DNA of 64,000 nucleotides from Vulcanimicrobiales bacterium (GTDB lineage: Bacteria > Vulcanimicrobiota > Vulcanimicrobiia > Vulcanimicrobiales > Vulcanimicrobiaceae): assembly GCA_038215615.1 (NCBI GenBank), contig JBBQQR010000002.1, positions 1 to 64,000 on the forward strand, written 5' to 3'. Positions 16,501-28,500 of this stretch are shown piece by piece; position 1 is the stretch's first letter; every line of letters starts with the position of its first letter. The position numbers were made by a program.

Positions 16501-19500
16501 CGCTGGTCGATCAGACGCGCAGCGCCATGGCGACCGTCGCAAACCAAAAGCATTTGATCCTCGTGATTGACCGGGCGGACATTATCTACGGCGGCGCGGA
16601 CATCACAGCCGATGTCCAAAATGCGCTCAAGTAGGACTCTCTTCGCAGGGTTAGCGGCAGCGATCGTCATGCTTGCGGGATGCGCGCAGCAGCGCGCTGA
16701 CGATCCGAACGTACGCGGCATCGGATACGTGCGCATGGAAGAAGTGCTCAAGAAACACCCGCTCTATCCGCAGCTGGCGCAGATCGACGACTCGATCGAC
16801 GCCCTGGGCCTGCATTCGCTCGGTGCCGGCGCCGTGCCCCACACGGGCAAGCAGATCGCCGTGCAGACCAAAGAACTCAACGCCGAGCTGAAAGCCGCGC
16901 AAGATCGCGCTAACGTCATTTTGCGGCAGAAGCAGCTGGATTACGCGCAGCGCGAGCAAGCCGCGATCTCAGCCGCGTTGGCCGCCGCCGGCGCCGGAAC
17001 GAACGGCGCGCAGAGCGCGCAGGCGATGCAGAGCATTTCGGCGTCGCAAGCACAGCAAGTGACGGCGCAAGCCAACAACGATTTCACGCAGTACCAGCAG
17101 AGCGTTATCGCGCAGTCCAATGCAGCGCTGCAATCGATTGGGGCGCAGCTGAGCGCGCGAGCGGATCGCGCCTTCGGCCAGCGTGCGACGCAGCTGCAAG
17201 AGCGCGAATCGCAGCTCTCCCTCGAACTTTCGCAGGCCGATGCCAACAAGCGGCTGCAGCTGCGCATGAAGCTCAACGGCTTGGCTCTGCCCGACGCGAC
17301 GCGCAAAGAATACCGCGATGAACTCGCCGCGCTCGACCGGCGCGAAGCTCTGGCGGTAAACGCTCAGCGCGCCCGCGATCAGCAGACGCTGGCGGCTTAC
17401 CGCACGCAGCTCAACGGCCAGGTGCGCGGTGAAATGGCTGCTCAGTCGGCGAAGATTCACTCCGATACGCAAGCCAAACTGCAGACACGGCGCAACGAAG
17501 TTTCTCAAACGGTGTCCTCGCAGCTGCAAGGCCTGCGGCCGGCGGCGGTGCCTTCCAACCTGCCGGCCGCGACGCGCGACCGCCTCGCGCAAATAGACAA
17601 GACGTTCAAGGCGCAGTTTCAGGCCGACGCGCAAAAGACGATCGCGCAATACCAGGCGACCAAGGCCGAGCTCGATGCCAAGTACGCCGAGCTGCAGGGT
17701 GCGGACTCGGCGGCAACGGGCGCCGCGAATAGCCAATTGGGGCAGCTGCAGCGCGAACGGGATGATCTCTATAATAAAATGGTGGAACAGATACGGCGTG
17801 ACGCCGGAACAGTGGCGGCGAAACGCGGATTGCAGGTCGTGCTCGTCAATATCGAAGCCGCGCCGGGCGGCATCGATCTGACCAACGACGTTGAAAAGGA
17901 CATCGAGAGTTTACACGAGTGAAAAAACAGATTGTCTTCGTCGCCGCTCTGGGAGCGGCCACCCTCGCCGGCTGTGCCGGATCCACAAGCCCGATCGGCT
18001 TGGTCGACGTGCAACGGCTGACCGCGAATTGGCCGGTCTACACGAACGCGCAGAATCAGCTCGTGGCCGACCAGCGCGCCATCGCCGCAAGCAAGGGTTC
18101 CAACGCCGACAAACAGCGTCAGGTCGTGGCGTTGCAGCAGCGCTATTCGCAAATCTCCAACCAACTCGTTTCGCAGGTTCGCGCGGCAACGGCAAAAGTG
18201 GCCGGGCAAAAGCAGTTGAAGCTGGTCGTGACGCGCGAGTTCGTCGGATACGGTGGTACCGATATCACCGGCGACGTTGAAAAGCTGCTCGGCATCACCG
18301 AAAAACCGACGCCTTCGCCATAGTGCTTGGAACGCTCGGCCAGCTGGCGCAGCGGCTCGGCGGCCGTGCGATTGGCGACGACACGTTCCACGTTTCGCGC
18401 ATTGCGGCGATCGACGACGCGGACTCCGAGACGCTCACGTTTGCTACGACGCCGTCCTATTTAGAAGAGGCGCTGAAATCGCGCGCCGGCGCCGTCCTCG
18501 TCGAGGAATCGTTGCTGGCACCTGAGTTGACGGAACGTCCCCGCAAACCGCTGGTCGCGGTACCTAACGCGCGCGCCGCGCTCGCGGCACTGCTCCAAAC
18601 CTTCGAACGTCCGCGTAAGACGGGCCCGTTCCGCCATCCGTCGGCATCGGTGGAGGCCGACGCGGTCGTGGGATCCGATGTATACATCGGCGCGCACGCC
18701 GTCGTCAGCTCGGGAGCGCGCATCGGCGCCCGCACCGTGCTCGAGGCCGGAGCCTACGTCGGCGCGCAGGCCACCATCGGTGACGGCGCCCTTCTGCATC
18801 CGCATTCGACGGTGCTCGACGGATGCACCATCGGCGATCGCGTGATTCTGCACAGCGGATCCGTGATCGGTTCGGATGGCTTCGGCTACGTTTTCATCGA
18901 CGGAAAATTTGAGAAGATCCCGCAAGTCGGTAATGTGGTGATCGGCAGCGATGTCGAGATCGGCGCGAATACGTGCGTCGACCGCGCGCAAACGGGCAGC
19001 ACGCACATCGGCGACGGAACGAAGATCGACAATCTGTGCCAGATCGGTCACAACTGCCGCATAGGCAAACACTGCGGCATCGCCGCGGAAGCGGGTCTGG
19101 CGGGCAGCACGATTCTGGGAGATTACGTTCTGGTCGGCGGCAAGGCCGGATTCTCCGGGCATCTCACGGTCGGATCGCGCGCGAGAATCGGCGGCGGCAG
19201 CCAGGTTTGGAAAGACGTACCCGAAGGCGCTTTTTACAGCGGCGTTCCGGCTCGTCCGCACGACCAGCAAATGCGTCGAGAGGTCATGATTCGCAACCTG
19301 GCTAAGCTCGTCGCCCGTGTCGACGCGCTCGAAAAACGTCAGTGACGCACTACCAAACCACGCTGCGTGAACCCCTCGCCTTTGAAGGCGTAGGTTTGCA
19401 TTCGGGCGCTCCCTGCCGAGTCGAAATTCGGCCCGCGGCTCCCGGCACGGGATTCCGCTTTGTGAGCTCGGGTGTCGAGATACCGGCGCTCGCAGAATAC

Positions 19501-25500: not shown

Positions 25501-28500
25501 CGTCGCCGGCGAACTCGACCATCGCGCTCGCGGTTGCGGCGGGACTCGTCGGCACGTGGGTGCAAGGGCTCATCGATACCGTGAGCGTCGTCATCTTCGG
25601 ACTGTGGCTGCCCTCAATGGCGCTCGCATTGGTCACGGCCACGGACGGACTCGGGGAGCAACCGCGATCGTCATGAAAAGTATTGGCCCGCTTCTGCTTG
25701 CGGCTGCGGCGCTGGGCGCGTGCAATCCTCAGCCGCTGCGCAATTCCGCGCCGGCGCCGGCGCCGACGGCGCAGGGCGTGCCGCCGCTCAAGATTACCGG
25801 TCACGGCAGCGCGGCATCGCCCGTCCGGACGTTCGAGCAGTCGGGTAACCGGAAAGTTTACGAGCTGCTGGCGCGTTCTTACGTCAGCCGCTCCGCGCAC
25901 AACGTCGCCCAAGCGACGTTTCACGAAGCAACCGTGACGTTCTATGATAGGGACGGCTCGTCGCTGACCGCGCAAGCTCCGCAAGCTGCGGTTGACGAAC
26001 GCACCAAACAAGTCACCCTTTCCGGCGGCGTTCAGGCGCACACGAGCACGGGTGCGGCGCTCACGTGCGACCGCTTGACCTACGATCGCGAGACGGGCAT
26101 GCTGGCGGGCAGCGGCAACGTGCGCATGACGGCCGACCAGAACGGATCGCACGAGGTGCTGACCGGCAACACGTTCACGTCCGATATCAAATTGACTCGA
26201 ATGGTGATCAAGTGACGGCGCAGCAAAACCCGGCTCGACAGATAAACATACGCGACCTGCGTAAGCGTTACGGCGAGCGCACCGTCGTCGACGGCGTCAG
26301 CGCCGAAGTACGCACGGGAGAGATCGTCGGACTGCTCGGTCCCAACGGTGCGGGCAAGACGACCACGTTTTATATGGTCGTCGGGTTGGTCAAAGCCGAC
26401 GGCGGTTCGGTTCTGCTCGAGACGGATGGCGGCGAGATCGATCTGACGTCTGCGCCAATGTATCAGCGGTCGCGCCGCGGCATCGGCTACTTGGCCCAGG
26501 AAAACTCGATCTTCCGCAAGCTCTCCGTCGGTGACAACATCCGCCTGATTTGGGAAATGCATGGCGTGCCGCGCGAAGAGCAAGAAGCCCGCATTGGGCC
26601 GCTGCTCGAAGAATTCGGACTGCTGCACCTGATAGAAGCGCGCGGCGACAGCCTTTCGGGCGGCGAGCGCCGGCGCGTCGAGATCGCGCGTTCGCTGGCC
26701 ACCGAGCCGGCGTTCCTACTGCTTGACGAACCATTCACCGGAATCGATCCGATCGCGGTGGCCGATATCCAAGCGATGATCCGGCAGCTGCGCGACCGCG
26801 GCCTCGGCATCTTGATTACGGATCATCAGGTGCGCGAGACGCTGGCGATCGTGGACCGCGCGTACATTCTCAATAACGGACGGATTGAAGTATCCGGATC
26901 GGCGCAAGAAGTGCTCGACAGTCCGGTCGCGCGCAAGTTTTATCTGGGCGAAGGATTCCGGCTTTGATTCAAGCCGCCGCCCGGCCCGCGCCGTTCAGGT
27001 TCACGATTCTCGACCGCTACATGCTCAACGAACTGCTGGGACCGTTTCTTTTCGGGCTCTCGGCGTTCACGCTGATCTTCGCAGCCGCGCAGATCATCGC
27101 GATTGGCCGCGCGGTTTCGGAAGCGCACGCACCGCTTTGGGCCGCCATCGAAGCGTTTCTTTGGCAGCTGCCTTCAATGGTCGTGCTGACGATCCCGATG
27201 GCTCTGCTACTGGGAACGCTGCTGGCGATTCAGCGGCTCTCCAGCGAGAGTGAAATCACGGCGATGAACGCCGGTGGTATTACGTTCATACGCATAATAG
27301 TGCCGCTGCTCGTCGCCGGATTCGTGATGTCGATCGTCAACCTCATCTTGCAAGAGGCGATCGTTCCCTACGCGCAGACGCAGTTCACGATCATCGAAAA
27401 CACGGTGATTAATCACACGAGCGCCTTTGCCAGCGATACGACGGTGAATGCTCCGCTGCCGGGAGGCGGGCACCAGATTACGTTCTTCAACGCGTACGAC
27501 CCCAACACGCATGGACTGATGCAGGTCACGCTCGTGCAATACGACCGGGCGGGCAGTCCGACACAGATCATCTTCGCCGACCGCGCGGACTTCGCCGCCG
27601 AGAAATGGACGCTCGATAACGCGCGCATTTACCGCTTCAGCGGCCCCGGCGGACAAAGTATCGTCGGATCGCAGACTCCGACACTGCAAGTCGAACTCGG
27701 CCAATCCCCGGCGGAGATCGCCAAACGGGCGGCGGGAAACAATCCCCTGAACATGAGCCGGAAAGAGCTTGGCGAAATCATCCGGACGGGGCAGCTCACA
27801 CCTTCCGAGCTGCGCAAATATTGGATGGCCTATCAAGAAAAGCTCGCGCAGCCGTTTGCCTGTTTCGTCTTCACGCTCATCGCGGTGCCTTTTGGGATCC
27901 GCTCGGTGCGCGGCGGCGGTAGTGCGAGTCTGGGATTTGGGTTAGCGGTGCTCATCGCGTTTATTTACTACGTCGTTCAGACGGTTTTCACGGGAATAGG
28001 CGAAGCCGCACCGTTCATCGCGGCACTTGCGGCGTGGATGCCGAACCTGATCTTCACCGCCATCGGAGCGTACCGGCTGCGCCGGGCGGCGCTTATTTAA
28101 ATGAATTTTGTCGATCTGCTCCGCGGCGCCGGCACCATTCTCTTCATCGTCGCGCTGGCCGGTCTCATCGCTTACGCGGGCGACCGCATCGGCCACCAAG
28201 TCGGAAGAAAGCGCTTGACGTTGCTCAACATCAGGCCGCGGTATACGTCGACGATCATCGCGGTTGCGACGGGAATGATCATCGCATTGATCGTCACCCT
28301 CGCCGCAATTTTCGCTTCGAATCAGGTGAAGACGGCGTTCTTCCGCCTCAATCAGATCAACGCCGAGATCGCTCAGGCGCAAGCGCGTGCGACCGAAGCC
28401 GAGAGCAAAGTCAACAATGGGCGGCTCGTCGTCGGCGTCGGCACGCCGATGGGCTACAATCCGGTACTGATTCCGCAAGACGCTTCGCCACAAGTTCGGC

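Follow-up and report, generated by a model that had tools for sequence, protein, structure and literature searches.

The window analyzed here, a stretch of 64,000 nt from a Vulcanimicrobiales bacterium, appears to encode a short route to lipid A like that known from cyanobacteria and Dictyoglomi, set within an operon for outer-membrane biogenesis, with roles for three further conserved genes that travel with the pathway: g00243 and g00244, next to lpxB, and P0402, which lies elsewhere in the genome. We give this reading as a whole, which for the three genes is based on sequence and predicted structure, a probability of about 50%. All genes of the cluster lie on the + strand in the order tamB-bamA-ompH-lpxD-lpxC-fabZ-lpxA-lpxB-g00243-g00244-wzy/waaL-like-lptC-lptB-lptF/G, and several of the junctions have overlapping start and stop codons, as expected for one operon:

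8166..13421, + strand: tamB-like gene, start of the supercluster (Pfam TamB, E 2.9e-22)
13204..15825, + strand: bamA, POTRA repeats and Omp85 barrel (Pfam POTRA, E 3.7e-38; Omp85, E 1.2e-20)
15831..16634, + strand: first of three consecutive OmpH/Skp-like chaperone genes (Pfam OmpH, E 1.2e-15)
16567..17922, + strand: second OmpH/Skp-like gene (E 2.6e-7)
17919..18323, + strand: third OmpH/Skp-like gene (E 3.5e-8)
18323..19345, + strand: lpxD (NCBIfam TIGR01853, 331.7 bits, cut-off 242.5)
19342..20184, + strand: lpxC (Pfam LpxC, E 2.3e-85; TIGR00325, 231 bits, cut-off 187)
20004..20657, + strand: fabZ (Pfam FabA, E 7.4e-28, residues 73-195 of a long ORF)
20667..21437, + strand: lpxA (TIGR01852, 328 bits, cut-off 231)
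21459..22574, + strand: lpxB, GT19 lipid A disaccharide synthase (Pfam LpxB, E 3.4e-50, 171 bits)
22574..23314, + strand: g00243, 246-aa metallophosphoesterase (Pfam Metallophos; NCBIfam SoxB/UshA-like matches)
23311..24474, + strand: g00244, 387-aa GT-B protein of the LpxB-related TIGR03492 family
24465..25676, + strand: Wzy_C/O-antigen-ligase-like (WaaL/IctB-like) membrane protein (Pfam Wzy_C, E 5.6e-20; IctB family, E 1.6e-22)
25460..26215, + strand: LptC-like gene (TIGR04409 LptC, 42.9 bits, cut-off 38; Pfam LptC, E 5.9e-6)
26065..26967, + strand: lptB (TIGR04406, 334 bits, cut-off 240)
26964..28100, + strand: lptF/lptG-family permease (Pfam LptF_LptG, E 1.6e-82; LptG model 225 bits, LptF model 148 bits)
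28101..29075, + strand: DUF3084 protein, syntenic tail of the cluster (Pfam DUF3084, E 5.2e-23)

This arrangement is the one given in the survey's finding, except that the gene called lptA there is LptC-like. The true start of fabZ is probably downstream of 20004, past the lpxC stop codon, and lpxB scores 152 bits against TIGR00215, below the cut-off of 190. Across 80 related loci, the order lpxB-g00243-g00244-wzyC is kept in the gene orders listed, the Wzy_C gene follows g00244 in 76, a DUF3084 gene lies 3' of lptF/G in 67, and bamA is syntenic in 60.

The survey had reported that LpxK, WaaA, the late acyltransferases and Kdo synthesis are missing from the genome, and six-frame HMM searches of the assembly agree. 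There were no matches for LpxK at E<=1 and none for Lip_A_acyltrans; the WaaA N-domain reached a best E of 0.39, with nothing over the cut-off, and this weak match falls within P0402. For CTP_transf_3, IspD alone was over the cut-off, with no KdsB, and KDO8P synthase gave two sub-cut-off matches only, both of which exceed the DAHP synthase cut-off of 335 bits (426 and 368), as had been stated earlier. The claimed absence of WaaA from the phylum also holds in our sample of 61 genomes, which comprises Eremiobacterota and genomes apparently labelled Armatimonadota: Glycos_transf_N was over the cut-off in none of them, and LpxK in one, marginally (26.7 bits). Genes for LpxL/M and Kdo synthesis were likewise not found, either here or in the sample. 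The presence of a short, Kdo-free route to lipid A in this genome, and its conservation across the phylum sample, are thus supported. The source organism is a soil bacterium with a genome of 2.21 Mb (completeness 100%, contamination 0.8%). That canonical genes for LpxK, WaaA and Kdo synthesis exist but were missed, through assembly gaps or because they are too divergent for the HMMs, would fit an assembly in 54 contigs and controls that can be insensitive, as with the LptD model, which responded in E. coli and Caulobacter only. This is nevertheless extremely improbable, given the completeness of the genome, the DAHP synthase scores, the positive controls in E. coli, Caulobacter and Bacteroides for the six-frame searches, and the counts for WaaA and LpxK in a sample in which completeness is 90% or higher and contamination 5% or lower for 50 of the 61 genomes, some genomes consisting of about one contig (rounded genome tables).

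As such, a Kdo-free pathway of four enzymes is already known from cyanobacteria, as the survey had noted. Passages of Opiyo et al. (2010; PMC3087551) give lpxA, lpxC, lpxD and lpxB as the only genes of the pathway in Cyanobacteria and Dictyoglomi, in the order lpxD-lpxC-fabZ-lpxA-lpxB; the present pathway shares the four enzymes, the gene order and the lack of LpxK, WaaA, LpxL and LpxH. These passages make no mention of g00243, TIGR03492 or P0402, of which TIGR03492 is also found in Synechococcus. The organism studied here differs in its phylum and in its ADP-heptose genes and four GT9 genes, whereas the cyanobacterial LPS described in PMC4515613, that of Synechococcus, is without Kdo, heptose and phosphate, its distal glucosamine being substituted with GalA at C4' and with a chain of glucose at C6'. 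Searches of the genome indeed found gmhA, hldE and the four GT9 matches reported earlier. However, retention of GT9 genes is no novelty of the phylum, since Synechococcus elongatus, in which LpxC is present and the WaaA search gave no match, also has GT9 over the cut-off.

Three UDP-2,3-diacylglucosamine hydrolases are known, LpxH, LpxG and LpxI. HMM searches found neither LpxH nor LpxI in the genome, nor in any of the 61 sample genomes; this missing step, and g00243 as the obvious candidate for it, had been overlooked in the survey. UshA, named UDP-sugar hydrolase in NCBIfam, converts UDP-sugar to UMP and sugar-1-phosphate, the chemistry that the lipid X step needs. The best structural matches of g00243 are 5'-nucleotidase (2z1a, Z 27.5) and UshA (1ush, Z 25.8), with which it shares the fold of the catalytic N-domain and all metal-binding motifs, but it consists of this domain only (246 aa, compared with about 550 in UshA), without the C-terminal nucleotide-binding domain. 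In contrast to periplasmic UshA, it has no evident signal peptide (sequence inspected by eye), and GNHE is replaced by GNRE, a motif invariant in all 24 homologues compared. Like LpxH and LpxG, g00243 is a calcineurin-like dimetal phosphoesterase, and it shares with LpxH the arginine in place of histidine in motif III, a change reported for LpxH only, where the arginine binds the lipid X phosphate (PMC5016852; passages of PMC3087551). Yet the LpxH model TIGR01854 gave no match and LpxH (5b49) reached a Z of only 10.4, which places g00243 outside the LpxH family, in the UshA/5'-nucleotidase branch. Its gene adjoins lpxB, a placement similar to that of lpxI between lpxA and lpxB (PMC3087551), and homologues occur in all 61 sample genomes. 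These features suggest that g00243 is likely a cytoplasmic UDP-2,3-diacylglucosamine pyrophosphatase, a predicted activity; it could equally be a phosphatase for another substrate. If the prediction is true, g00243 would be a fourth type of enzyme for the LpxH/LpxI/LpxG step, not orthologous to the other three.

The second conserved gene, g00244, has no Pfam match, including to Pfam LpxB, as noted before. It is not an orphan, however: its match to NCBIfam TIGR03492, a family named "lipid-A-disaccharide synthase-related protein", spans positions 1-394 of the 396 in the profile (E 4e-59; 200.3 bits, below the cut-off of 219.2), and homologues at NCBI and JGI already bear this name. Neither the name nor 'TIGR03492' was mentioned in the literature searched. 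Alignment with the LpxB of the window by hhalign gave a probability of 97.7% (E 1.8e-12). The GT-B fold proposed earlier was confirmed by an AlphaFold2 model (pLDDT 93.6) with at least 500 GT-B matches in Foldseek, UDP-GlcNAc 2-epimerases among them; structure searches recover the generic fold only. In a profile search of PDB sequences, the TIGR03492 alignment matched a UDP-GlcNAc 2-epimerase (E 1.7e-8) better than LpxB (E 1.3e-5). Residues E13, P205-G206-S207-R208, T301 and E304 of g00244 are invariant or nearly so and may be read as the counterparts of E15, P198-G199-S200-R201, T277 and E281 of LpxB (PMC5785501, Table 3). Both g00244 and P0402 are homologous to LpxB (GT19; PDB 5W8S), are encoded with or near lpxB, and keep its UDP-binding motifs (N-terminal G-x-G-E, P-G-S-R and G-T-x-x-E), but Pfam LpxB does not detect g00244 and gives only E 0.004 for P0402. 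As a bona fide LpxB is also present, these paralogues must do something else.

A further enzyme for comparison is WaaA (KdtA, GT30), an inverting GT-B enzyme that attaches the first core sugar to the lipid A disaccharide at its 6' position after LpxK has acted. TIGR03492 is found fused to LpxK, and WaaA (2xci) matches the g00244 model with a Z of 18.6, although many other GT-B folds match better; no Glycos_transf_N match over the cut-off and no CMP-Kdo supply were found in the genome. TIGR03492 is over its cut-off in Deinococcus radiodurans, where an HMM search found no LpxC, so that the family can work without lipid A. Furthermore, at a metagenomic locus from another lineage (L125), a TIGR03492::LpxK fusion lies beside kdsB, lpxI and a KdsC-like HAD gene, and the family therefore also occurs outside Kdo-less or LpxH-less organisms. 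From these occurrences it follows that TIGR03492 is not just a substitute for WaaA in organisms with Kdo-less lipid A. The Deinococcus case, the generic fold and the fusions to an EpsD-like GT2 and, in Armatimonadota, to Wzy_C (WaaL-like ligase, IctB-like), which fit a general polysaccharide pathway, would also agree with glycosylation of another membrane acceptor, such as another glycolipid or a polyprenol-linked glycan destined for polymerization or ligation by a Wzy_C protein, g00244 being in the cluster only because envelope genes cluster. We consider this unlikely in view of the two independent LpxK::TIGR03492 fusions with both domains scoring strongly, the homology to LpxB, the constant place after lpxB and g00243 in the 80 loci, also in distant families, and the presence of a homologue in all 61 sample genomes, each of which bears LPS genes.

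The g00243-like and TIGR03492 genes are about 1.2 kb or less apart in 52 of the 61 genomes by their coordinates, and are fused in one protein, P0264. With the absence of LpxH and LpxI, the lack of a nucleotide-binding domain in g00243 and UDP-GlcNAc 2-epimerase as best PDB profile match, this could mean that the two proteins jointly perform the UDP-2,3-diacylglucosamine step, g00244 being an LpxB/epimerase-like, UDP-sugar-binding subunit that hands the substrate to the phosphoesterase, or a UDP-releasing enzyme, and not a glycosyltransferase. Such a division of labor is quite improbable: at L125, TIGR03492, there fused to LpxK, occurs together with LpxI, and the ORFs scanned included no g00243-like gene; the Wzy_C and GT2 fusions point to later steps; and the residues matching the LpxB transferase site are conserved. 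Taken together, g00244 is a candidate for a glycosyltransferase that uses the lipid A disaccharide as acceptor; what had been said of it earlier is supported in so far as it is a conserved GT-B protein, which synteny and fusions link to lipid A, but it is not simply a stand-in for WaaA.

P0402, on contig 5, is the third LpxB-like gene, situated in the ADP-heptose (hldE)/GT9 operon, where its translation is coupled to that of hldE and GT2 and GT9 genes come next; the survey had overlooked it. Among PDB sequences, LpxB is its sole clear relative (E 2.8e-12; next best 0.016), and it carries PGSR and PN motifs. The order hldE-P0402-GT2-GT9 occurs in all nine loci of the family, hldE adjoins the P0402 orthologue in four of five distant genomes, and in four of four distant loci a P0402 paralogue lies between lpxB and the g00243-like gene. 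P0402 thus appears to be a better candidate than g00244 for joining heptose to lipid A.

In the proposed pathway, the UshA-type dimetal phosphoesterase g00243 would cleave UDP-2,3-diacylglucosamine in the cytoplasm to UMP and lipid X, after which LpxB would make the disaccharide. At the cytoplasmic face, g00244, with the nucleotide-sugar-binding residues of LpxB, would then attach a sugar at position 4' or 6' of the distal glucosamine, which carries no phosphate, taking the place of the LpxK/WaaA chemistry and preparing an acceptor for the neighboring WaaL-like ligase, and P0402 would join a core that contains heptose to lipid A. The resulting LPS, exported by LptB/C/F/G, would be Kdo-free and probably phosphate-poor. 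The Kdo-less, heptose-containing LPS predicted earlier is consistent with the Kdo-free pathway and the heptose and GT9 genes, but the heptose link would rather be made by P0402. If this reading is right, the organism would use a cyanobacteria-like, Kdo-free route to LPS in which the missing steps are probably covered by g00243, g00244 and P0402.

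The genes of the envelope run are all encoded on the forward strand and are arranged as follows.

8166-13421, +, tamB
13204-15825, +, bamA
15831-18323, +, three OmpH-like genes
18323-19345, +, lpxD
19342-20184, +, lpxC
end at 20657, +, fabZ
20667-21437, +, lpxA
21459-22574, +, lpxB
22574-23314, +, g00243, a metallophosphoesterase gene
23311-24474, +, g00244, a gene for a protein of GT-B fold (candidate glycosyltransferase)
24465-25676, +, Wzy_C/O-antigen-ligase-like gene (wzyC)
25460-26215, +, LptC-like gene (called lptA in the survey's finding)
26065-26967, +, lptB
26964-28100, +, lptF/G permease gene
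28101-29075, +, DUF3084 gene

Several neighbouring genes of the cluster overlap by 1-10 bases, as in a single operon. The gene order is kept across 80 related loci, with bamA-ompH-lpxD-lpxC-fabZ-lpxA-lpxB-g00243-g00244-wzyC-lptC-lptB-lptFG-DUF3084 as the most common configuration (29 loci), and g00244 was detected in 79, g00243 in 78, wzyC in 76 and lpxB in 74 of these loci. For LptD (Pfam PF04453), nothing was found at E<=0.001 in the whole genome; because this model was positive in E. coli and Caulobacter alone among 14 control genomes, its breadth is insufficient for a judgement. Some 8 kb separate the beginning of the run from dnaA and dnaN. Upstream of tamB, positions 39-8071 contain dnaA, dnaN, a PF04185 phosphoesterase-family gene (2822-4255), recF, a DciA-domain gene and gyrB. 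Since the genes from dnaA to gyrB directly precede tamB, the envelope supercluster is located beside the probable replication origin. The gyrB gene is present as two overlapping ORFs, 6138-7583 (481 aa, ATPase and GyrB domains) and 7580-8071 (163 aa, Toprim and C-terminus), which may reflect a frameshift or an assembly error. On the 3' side, the cluster is followed by a 389-aa ORF without a Pfam or NCBIfam family (29533-30702), a TPR protein (30831-31565) and a GT4 glycosyltransferase (31562-32590). Further along the window are an 894-aa protein combining an adenylate/guanylate cyclase domain, an NB-ARC/AAA ATPase and TPR repeats (38560-41244), and minC followed by two successive MinD/ParA-type ATPase genes (54554-57103).

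The absence of LpxK, WaaA, the late acyltransferases and Kdo synthesis, as claimed in the survey's finding, was corroborated by six-frame HMM searches of the genome (2.21 Mb, 54 contigs, 100% complete, 0.8% contamination), with positive controls for the LpxK, WaaA, acyltransferase and Kdo searches in E. coli, Caulobacter and Bacteroides. In this genome, no match to LpxK was found at E<=1, no late acyltransferase was detected, the WaaA N-domain (Glycos_transf_N, PF04413) did not exceed the cut-off (best E 0.39, 10.5 bits), and IspD alone was over the cut-off for CTP_transf_3. There are only two members of the KDO8P synthase family; both remain below the cut-off for KDO8P synthase (105 and 96 bits versus 314) and are, by score, DAHP synthases (426 and 368 bits versus 335). 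The analysis was expanded to a phylum sample of 61 genomes, 50 of which have at least 90% completeness and at most 5% contamination; the sample is wider than Eremiobacterota and apparently takes in Armatimonadota. WaaA was over the cut-off in none of the 61 genomes, and LpxK in a single one, marginally (26.7 bits). Within the detection reach of the HMMs, the absences of LpxK, WaaA and the Kdo genes are thus real. The LpxH/LpxI step, not mentioned in the survey's finding, is missing as well: the sole match to LpxH (TIGR01854) at E<=1 in the genome lies on contig 9 (E 0.13) and is not g00243, LpxI is absent from the genome, and neither enzyme was found in any of the 61 genomes.

The canonical nine-enzyme Raetz pathway (LpxH/I/G, LpxK, WaaA, LpxL/M), the only lipid A pathway treated in passages of a 2026 review in Chem Rev, does not match this gene content, whereas the cyanobacterial-type four-enzyme pathway does: lpxA, lpxC, lpxD and lpxB occur, in a cluster with fabZ, and LpxK, WaaA and the late acyltransferases are absent. 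Passages of PMC3087551 already describe the four-enzyme, Kdo-free lipid A pathway and its gene order for Cyanobacteria and Dictyoglomi. A heptose-free LPS of the cyanobacterial type is not what the genes suggest, however, as the heptose genes reported earlier are indeed present (gmhA, a split hldE and four GT9 matches); Synechococcus elongatus likewise has a GT9 over the cut-off.

LpxB requires lipid X. With both LpxH and LpxI missing, g00243, located between lpxB and g00244, fits the gap. It encodes a metallophosphoesterase of 246 aa with the full set of metal motifs and no evident signal peptide. The best structural matches of its model (pLDDT 92.0) are 2z1a (Z 27.5) and 1ush (Z 25.8), in which the N-domain is matched over 231-236 residues, compared with a Z of only 10.4 for LpxH 5b49, and the equivalog model TIGR01854 did not match g00243. 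Judged by sequence and model, g00243 corresponds to the catalytic N-domain alone of a UshA/5'-nucleotidase-type enzyme, ending at 246 aa and lacking the C-terminal substrate-binding domain of these enzymes. The hallmark of LpxH is nevertheless present, that is, an Arg in place of the His of motif III (GN-R-D/E): the GNRE of g00243 aligns with the GNHE of 5'-nucleotidases and is invariant in all 24 homologues, distant and fused forms included. According to passages in PMC3087551 and PMC5016852, this His-to-Arg change is peculiar to LpxH, whose Arg at this position is salt-bridged to the lipid X phosphate. Furthermore, NCBIfam names UshA a UDP-sugar hydrolase, and the formation of lipid X calls for cleavage of the same bond; g00243 might alternatively act as a 1-phosphatase. 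Genes similar to g00243 occur in all 61 genomes, and a coordinate comparison placed the best match at most about 1.2 kb from a TIGR03492 gene (the family that g00244 matches, see below) in 52 of them. Among the other nine (G002, G009, G023, G028, G032, G012, G019, G042 and G026), some pairs are split by contig ends and some are absent from the matches listed. The pathway gap, the fold, the GNRE motif, the presence in all genomes and the adjacency to TIGR03492 argue for g00243 as a candidate UDP-2,3-diacylglucosamine pyrophosphatase.

The product of g00244 had been described as an orphan GT-B protein. It indeed matches no Pfam family at E<=0.01 and does not reach the gathering score of Pfam LpxB (PF02684), but it aligns end to end with TIGR03492, the NCBIfam "lipid-A-disaccharide synthase-related protein" (E 4e-59, covering profile positions 1-394 of 396, with 200.3 bits, slightly short of the curated cut-off of 219.2), and close homologues carry this name at NCBI and JGI, so that the protein is not an orphan. 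The family is present in all 61 genomes and exceeds the cut-off in 46. Its homology to LpxB is visible at the profile level only: a comparison of g00244 with the LpxB of the window by hhalign gave a probability of 97.7% and E 1.8e-12 over 338 columns. Among PDB sequences the TIGR03492 profile matched an epimerase (E 1.7e-8) ahead of LpxB 5w8s (E 1.3e-5). The g00244 model (pLDDT 93.6) is a generic GT-B fold; Foldseek and VIA-align retrieved UDP-GlcNAc 2-epimerases first and then many transferases, including WaaA (Z 18.6), GT1 and MurG, and LpxB is not among the matches listed, which we do not take as evidence. Across 76 sequences, residues E13, P205, G206, S207, R208, T301 and E304 of g00244 are either unchanged or conserved to 90% or more. 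The nucleotide-sugar-binding residues of LpxB are E15, P198-G199-S200-R201, T277 and E281 (PMC5785501, Table 3). The UDP-binding residues of E. coli LpxB are present both in g00244 and in P0402, a third LpxB-like protein of the genome, the correspondence being read from a motif alignment and not from a solved complex. Neither protein exceeds the cut-off of the WaaA/GT30 model (PF04413). A complex prediction for g00244 with g00243 scored 0.00 in both runs, with controls not folded, and has no bearing either way.

The 80 best records for the TIGR03492 alignment against genome contigs were all of the Eremiobacterota/Vulcanimicrobiota type, and a tblastn search with g00244 found no match in a plasmid collection. 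At E<=1e-40, Synechococcus elongatus and Deinococcus radiodurans were the only ones of 14 control genomes with TIGR03492; D. radiodurans has no LpxC. Tandem TIGR03492 genes occur in four genomes of 7-8 Mb from one family of the sample (G016:C24, G027:C194, G031:C246 and G022:C111). A literature search for 'TIGR03492' or 'lipid-A-disaccharide synthase-related' found neither term in any of the papers searched.

An exhaustive representative search for TIGR03492 relatives, with 768 matches at E<=0.001, revealed several fusions. In two proteins, full LpxK (181 and 217 bits) and TIGR03492 (205 and 230 bits) domains are joined. A Wzy_C/IctB-like membrane domain is fused to TIGR03492 in proteins of about 776 aa from Armatimonadota; a word-index search for longer g00244 relatives gave only four matches, two of which, closer relatives, carry Wzy_C. 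In one protein a g00243-like phosphoesterase is fused to TIGR03492, and in two, TIGR03492 is combined with an EpsD-like GT2. These fusions suggest that the TIGR03492 protein acts together with the lipid A 4'-kinase in organisms that have one, and with the products of its two flanking genes here. One LpxK fusion, 76% identical to the protein P0384, is encoded on the metagenome contig L125 (GC 47.6%), together with lpxC, lpxA, a KdsC-like HAD gene, lptF/G, lpxI, lpxB, a second LpxB-like gene, msbA and kdsB, with a Wzy_C gene further along, past kdsB. The TIGR03492 family thus also occurs alongside Kdo genes and LpxI. Glycos_transf_N was not among the 25 ORFs scanned in 22 kb of this 33.6-kb contig. 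L125 and Deinococcus, which lacks LpxC, set limits on reading TIGR03492 as a stand-in for WaaA. The L125 cluster also contains an asparagine-synthase gene and adjoins tmk-DUF327-holB-PSP1, an order known from Firmicutes; several of its genes, among them lpxB and lpxC, are in pieces, probably due to sequencing errors.

The weak WaaA match quoted in the survey's finding (E 0.39) is located within P0402, a protein of 404 aa encoded outside the window.

Contig 5, 80120-88045 (L110:6120-14045), P0402 operon: gmhA, hldE kinase, hldE adenylyltransferase, P0402, GT2, GT9, GT2, GT9, GT2; flanked by hisS and aspS
Contig 5, 84780-85991, -, P0402, overlapping the hldE stop

P0402 itself remains under the gathering score of Pfam LpxB (16.5 bits, E 0.004, versus 22.6), whereas paralogues located within lpx clusters of distant genomes are over it (47-55 bits). 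In the PDB, LpxB 5w8s is the only clear relative of the family profile (E 2.8e-12; next best 0.016), and 14 sequences show no variation in the LpxB-type motifs E12, P176-G177-S178-R179, T278 and E282. P0402 is present in 59 of the 61 genomes; the order hldE-P0402-GT2-GT9 is found at all nine same-family loci, and hldE adjoins the P0402 orthologue in four of five distant genomes examined. At all four distant loci a P0402 paralogue lies inside the lipid A cluster, in the order lpxD-lpxC-fabZ-(GFO/IDH/MocA)-lpxA-lpxB-[P0402-like]-(PEMT/ICMT-like or unknown gene)-g00243-like-TIGR03492, with an lpxD-like gene downstream of lpxB at one of the four. A protein atlas suggested similar clusters in Cyanobacteriota (score 0.98), which serves as a lead only. 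The LpxB motifs, the operon with hldE and GT9 genes and the paralogues in lipid A clusters make P0402 the better candidate for joining a heptose-bearing core to lipid A.

These distant loci (L121-L124) have further features of their own. A GFO/IDH/MocA oxidoreductase gene, reminiscent of GnnA of the GlcN3N-lipid A route, separates fabZ and lpxA at all four; the gene is missing from the window, in which fabZ abuts lpxA. A PEMT/ICMT-like membrane methyltransferase is encoded between the P0402-like gene and the phosphoesterase gene at two of them (L122:6789-8750 and L123:6400-6978), and in L122 it is apparently fused to the LpxB-like protein in one 653-aa ORF.

In the pathway that we propose, UDP-2,3-diacylglucosamine would be made by LpxA, LpxC and LpxD, part of it would be cut to lipid X by g00243, and LpxB would couple the two. 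Without LpxK and Kdo, the distal glucosamine should have free 4' and 6' hydroxyls, an acceptor of a kind that two LpxB-derived transferases are well equipped to recognise. In Synechococcus, according to passages of the review PMC4515613, galacturonic acid and a glucose chain occupy these positions, and lipid A is without phosphate. Here, g00244 and P0402 may decorate the 4'/6' positions at the cytoplasmic face, with P0402 starting the heptose-containing part; after flipping, a polymer would be added by the WaaL-like neighbour, and the product would be exported by LptB/C/F/G. The cultured Vulcanimicrobium alpinus is described, in passages of PMC9758169, as having an LPS-covered outer membrane and abundant 3-hydroxy iso-C14 and iso-C13 acids; the 3-hydroxy fatty acids fit lipid A synthesis in this organism. 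More generally, Eremiobacterota, Armatimonadota and, in part, cyanobacteria might share a Kdo-independent LPS in which duplicated LpxB-type enzymes take over the LpxK/WaaA stage, hldE-coupled P0402 moves heptose (or a heptose-receiving sugar) directly onto the lipid A disaccharide, TIGR03492 adds a second substituent to the distal glucosamine, and g00243, derived from UshA, represents a fourth class of UDP-2,3-diacylglucosamine hydrolases, convergent with LpxH in its catalytic arginine. For this reading as a whole, we estimate a chance of roughly one in four; the functions given for g00243, g00244 and P0402 are proposals.

Novelty had been claimed for the phylum, the GT9 genes and the orphan GT-B. 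The phylum is new; GT9 genes are found in S. elongatus too, and g00244 matches TIGR03492. In view of the pathway in PMC3087551 and the S. elongatus GT9, there is no novelty in the short pathway or in GT9 in an organism without Kdo. What is new, besides the phylum, is the conserved module lpxB - LpxB-like - phosphoesterase - TIGR03492, the TIGR03492 fusions, the arginine that a UshA-type enzyme shares with LpxH and the hldE-coupled LpxB paralogue.

To our knowledge, the joining of the core to lipid A in Kdo-less bacteria has not been worked out. Passages on the cyanobacterial four-enzyme pathway (PMC3087551, PMC4515613) give no gene name for lipid X formation or the first core sugars. From the window and its relatives come three specific candidates, genes that show conservation, synteny and, in some cases, fusion. 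If it works as proposed, g00243 would mean that an essential step, one targeted by drugs, has been solved independently a fourth time. The LPS predicted here, Kdo-free and possibly with heptose, is open to chemical analysis in a cultured organism, Vulcanimicrobium alpinus. The findings also have a bearing on how the outer membrane is built in Terrabacteria-type diderms.
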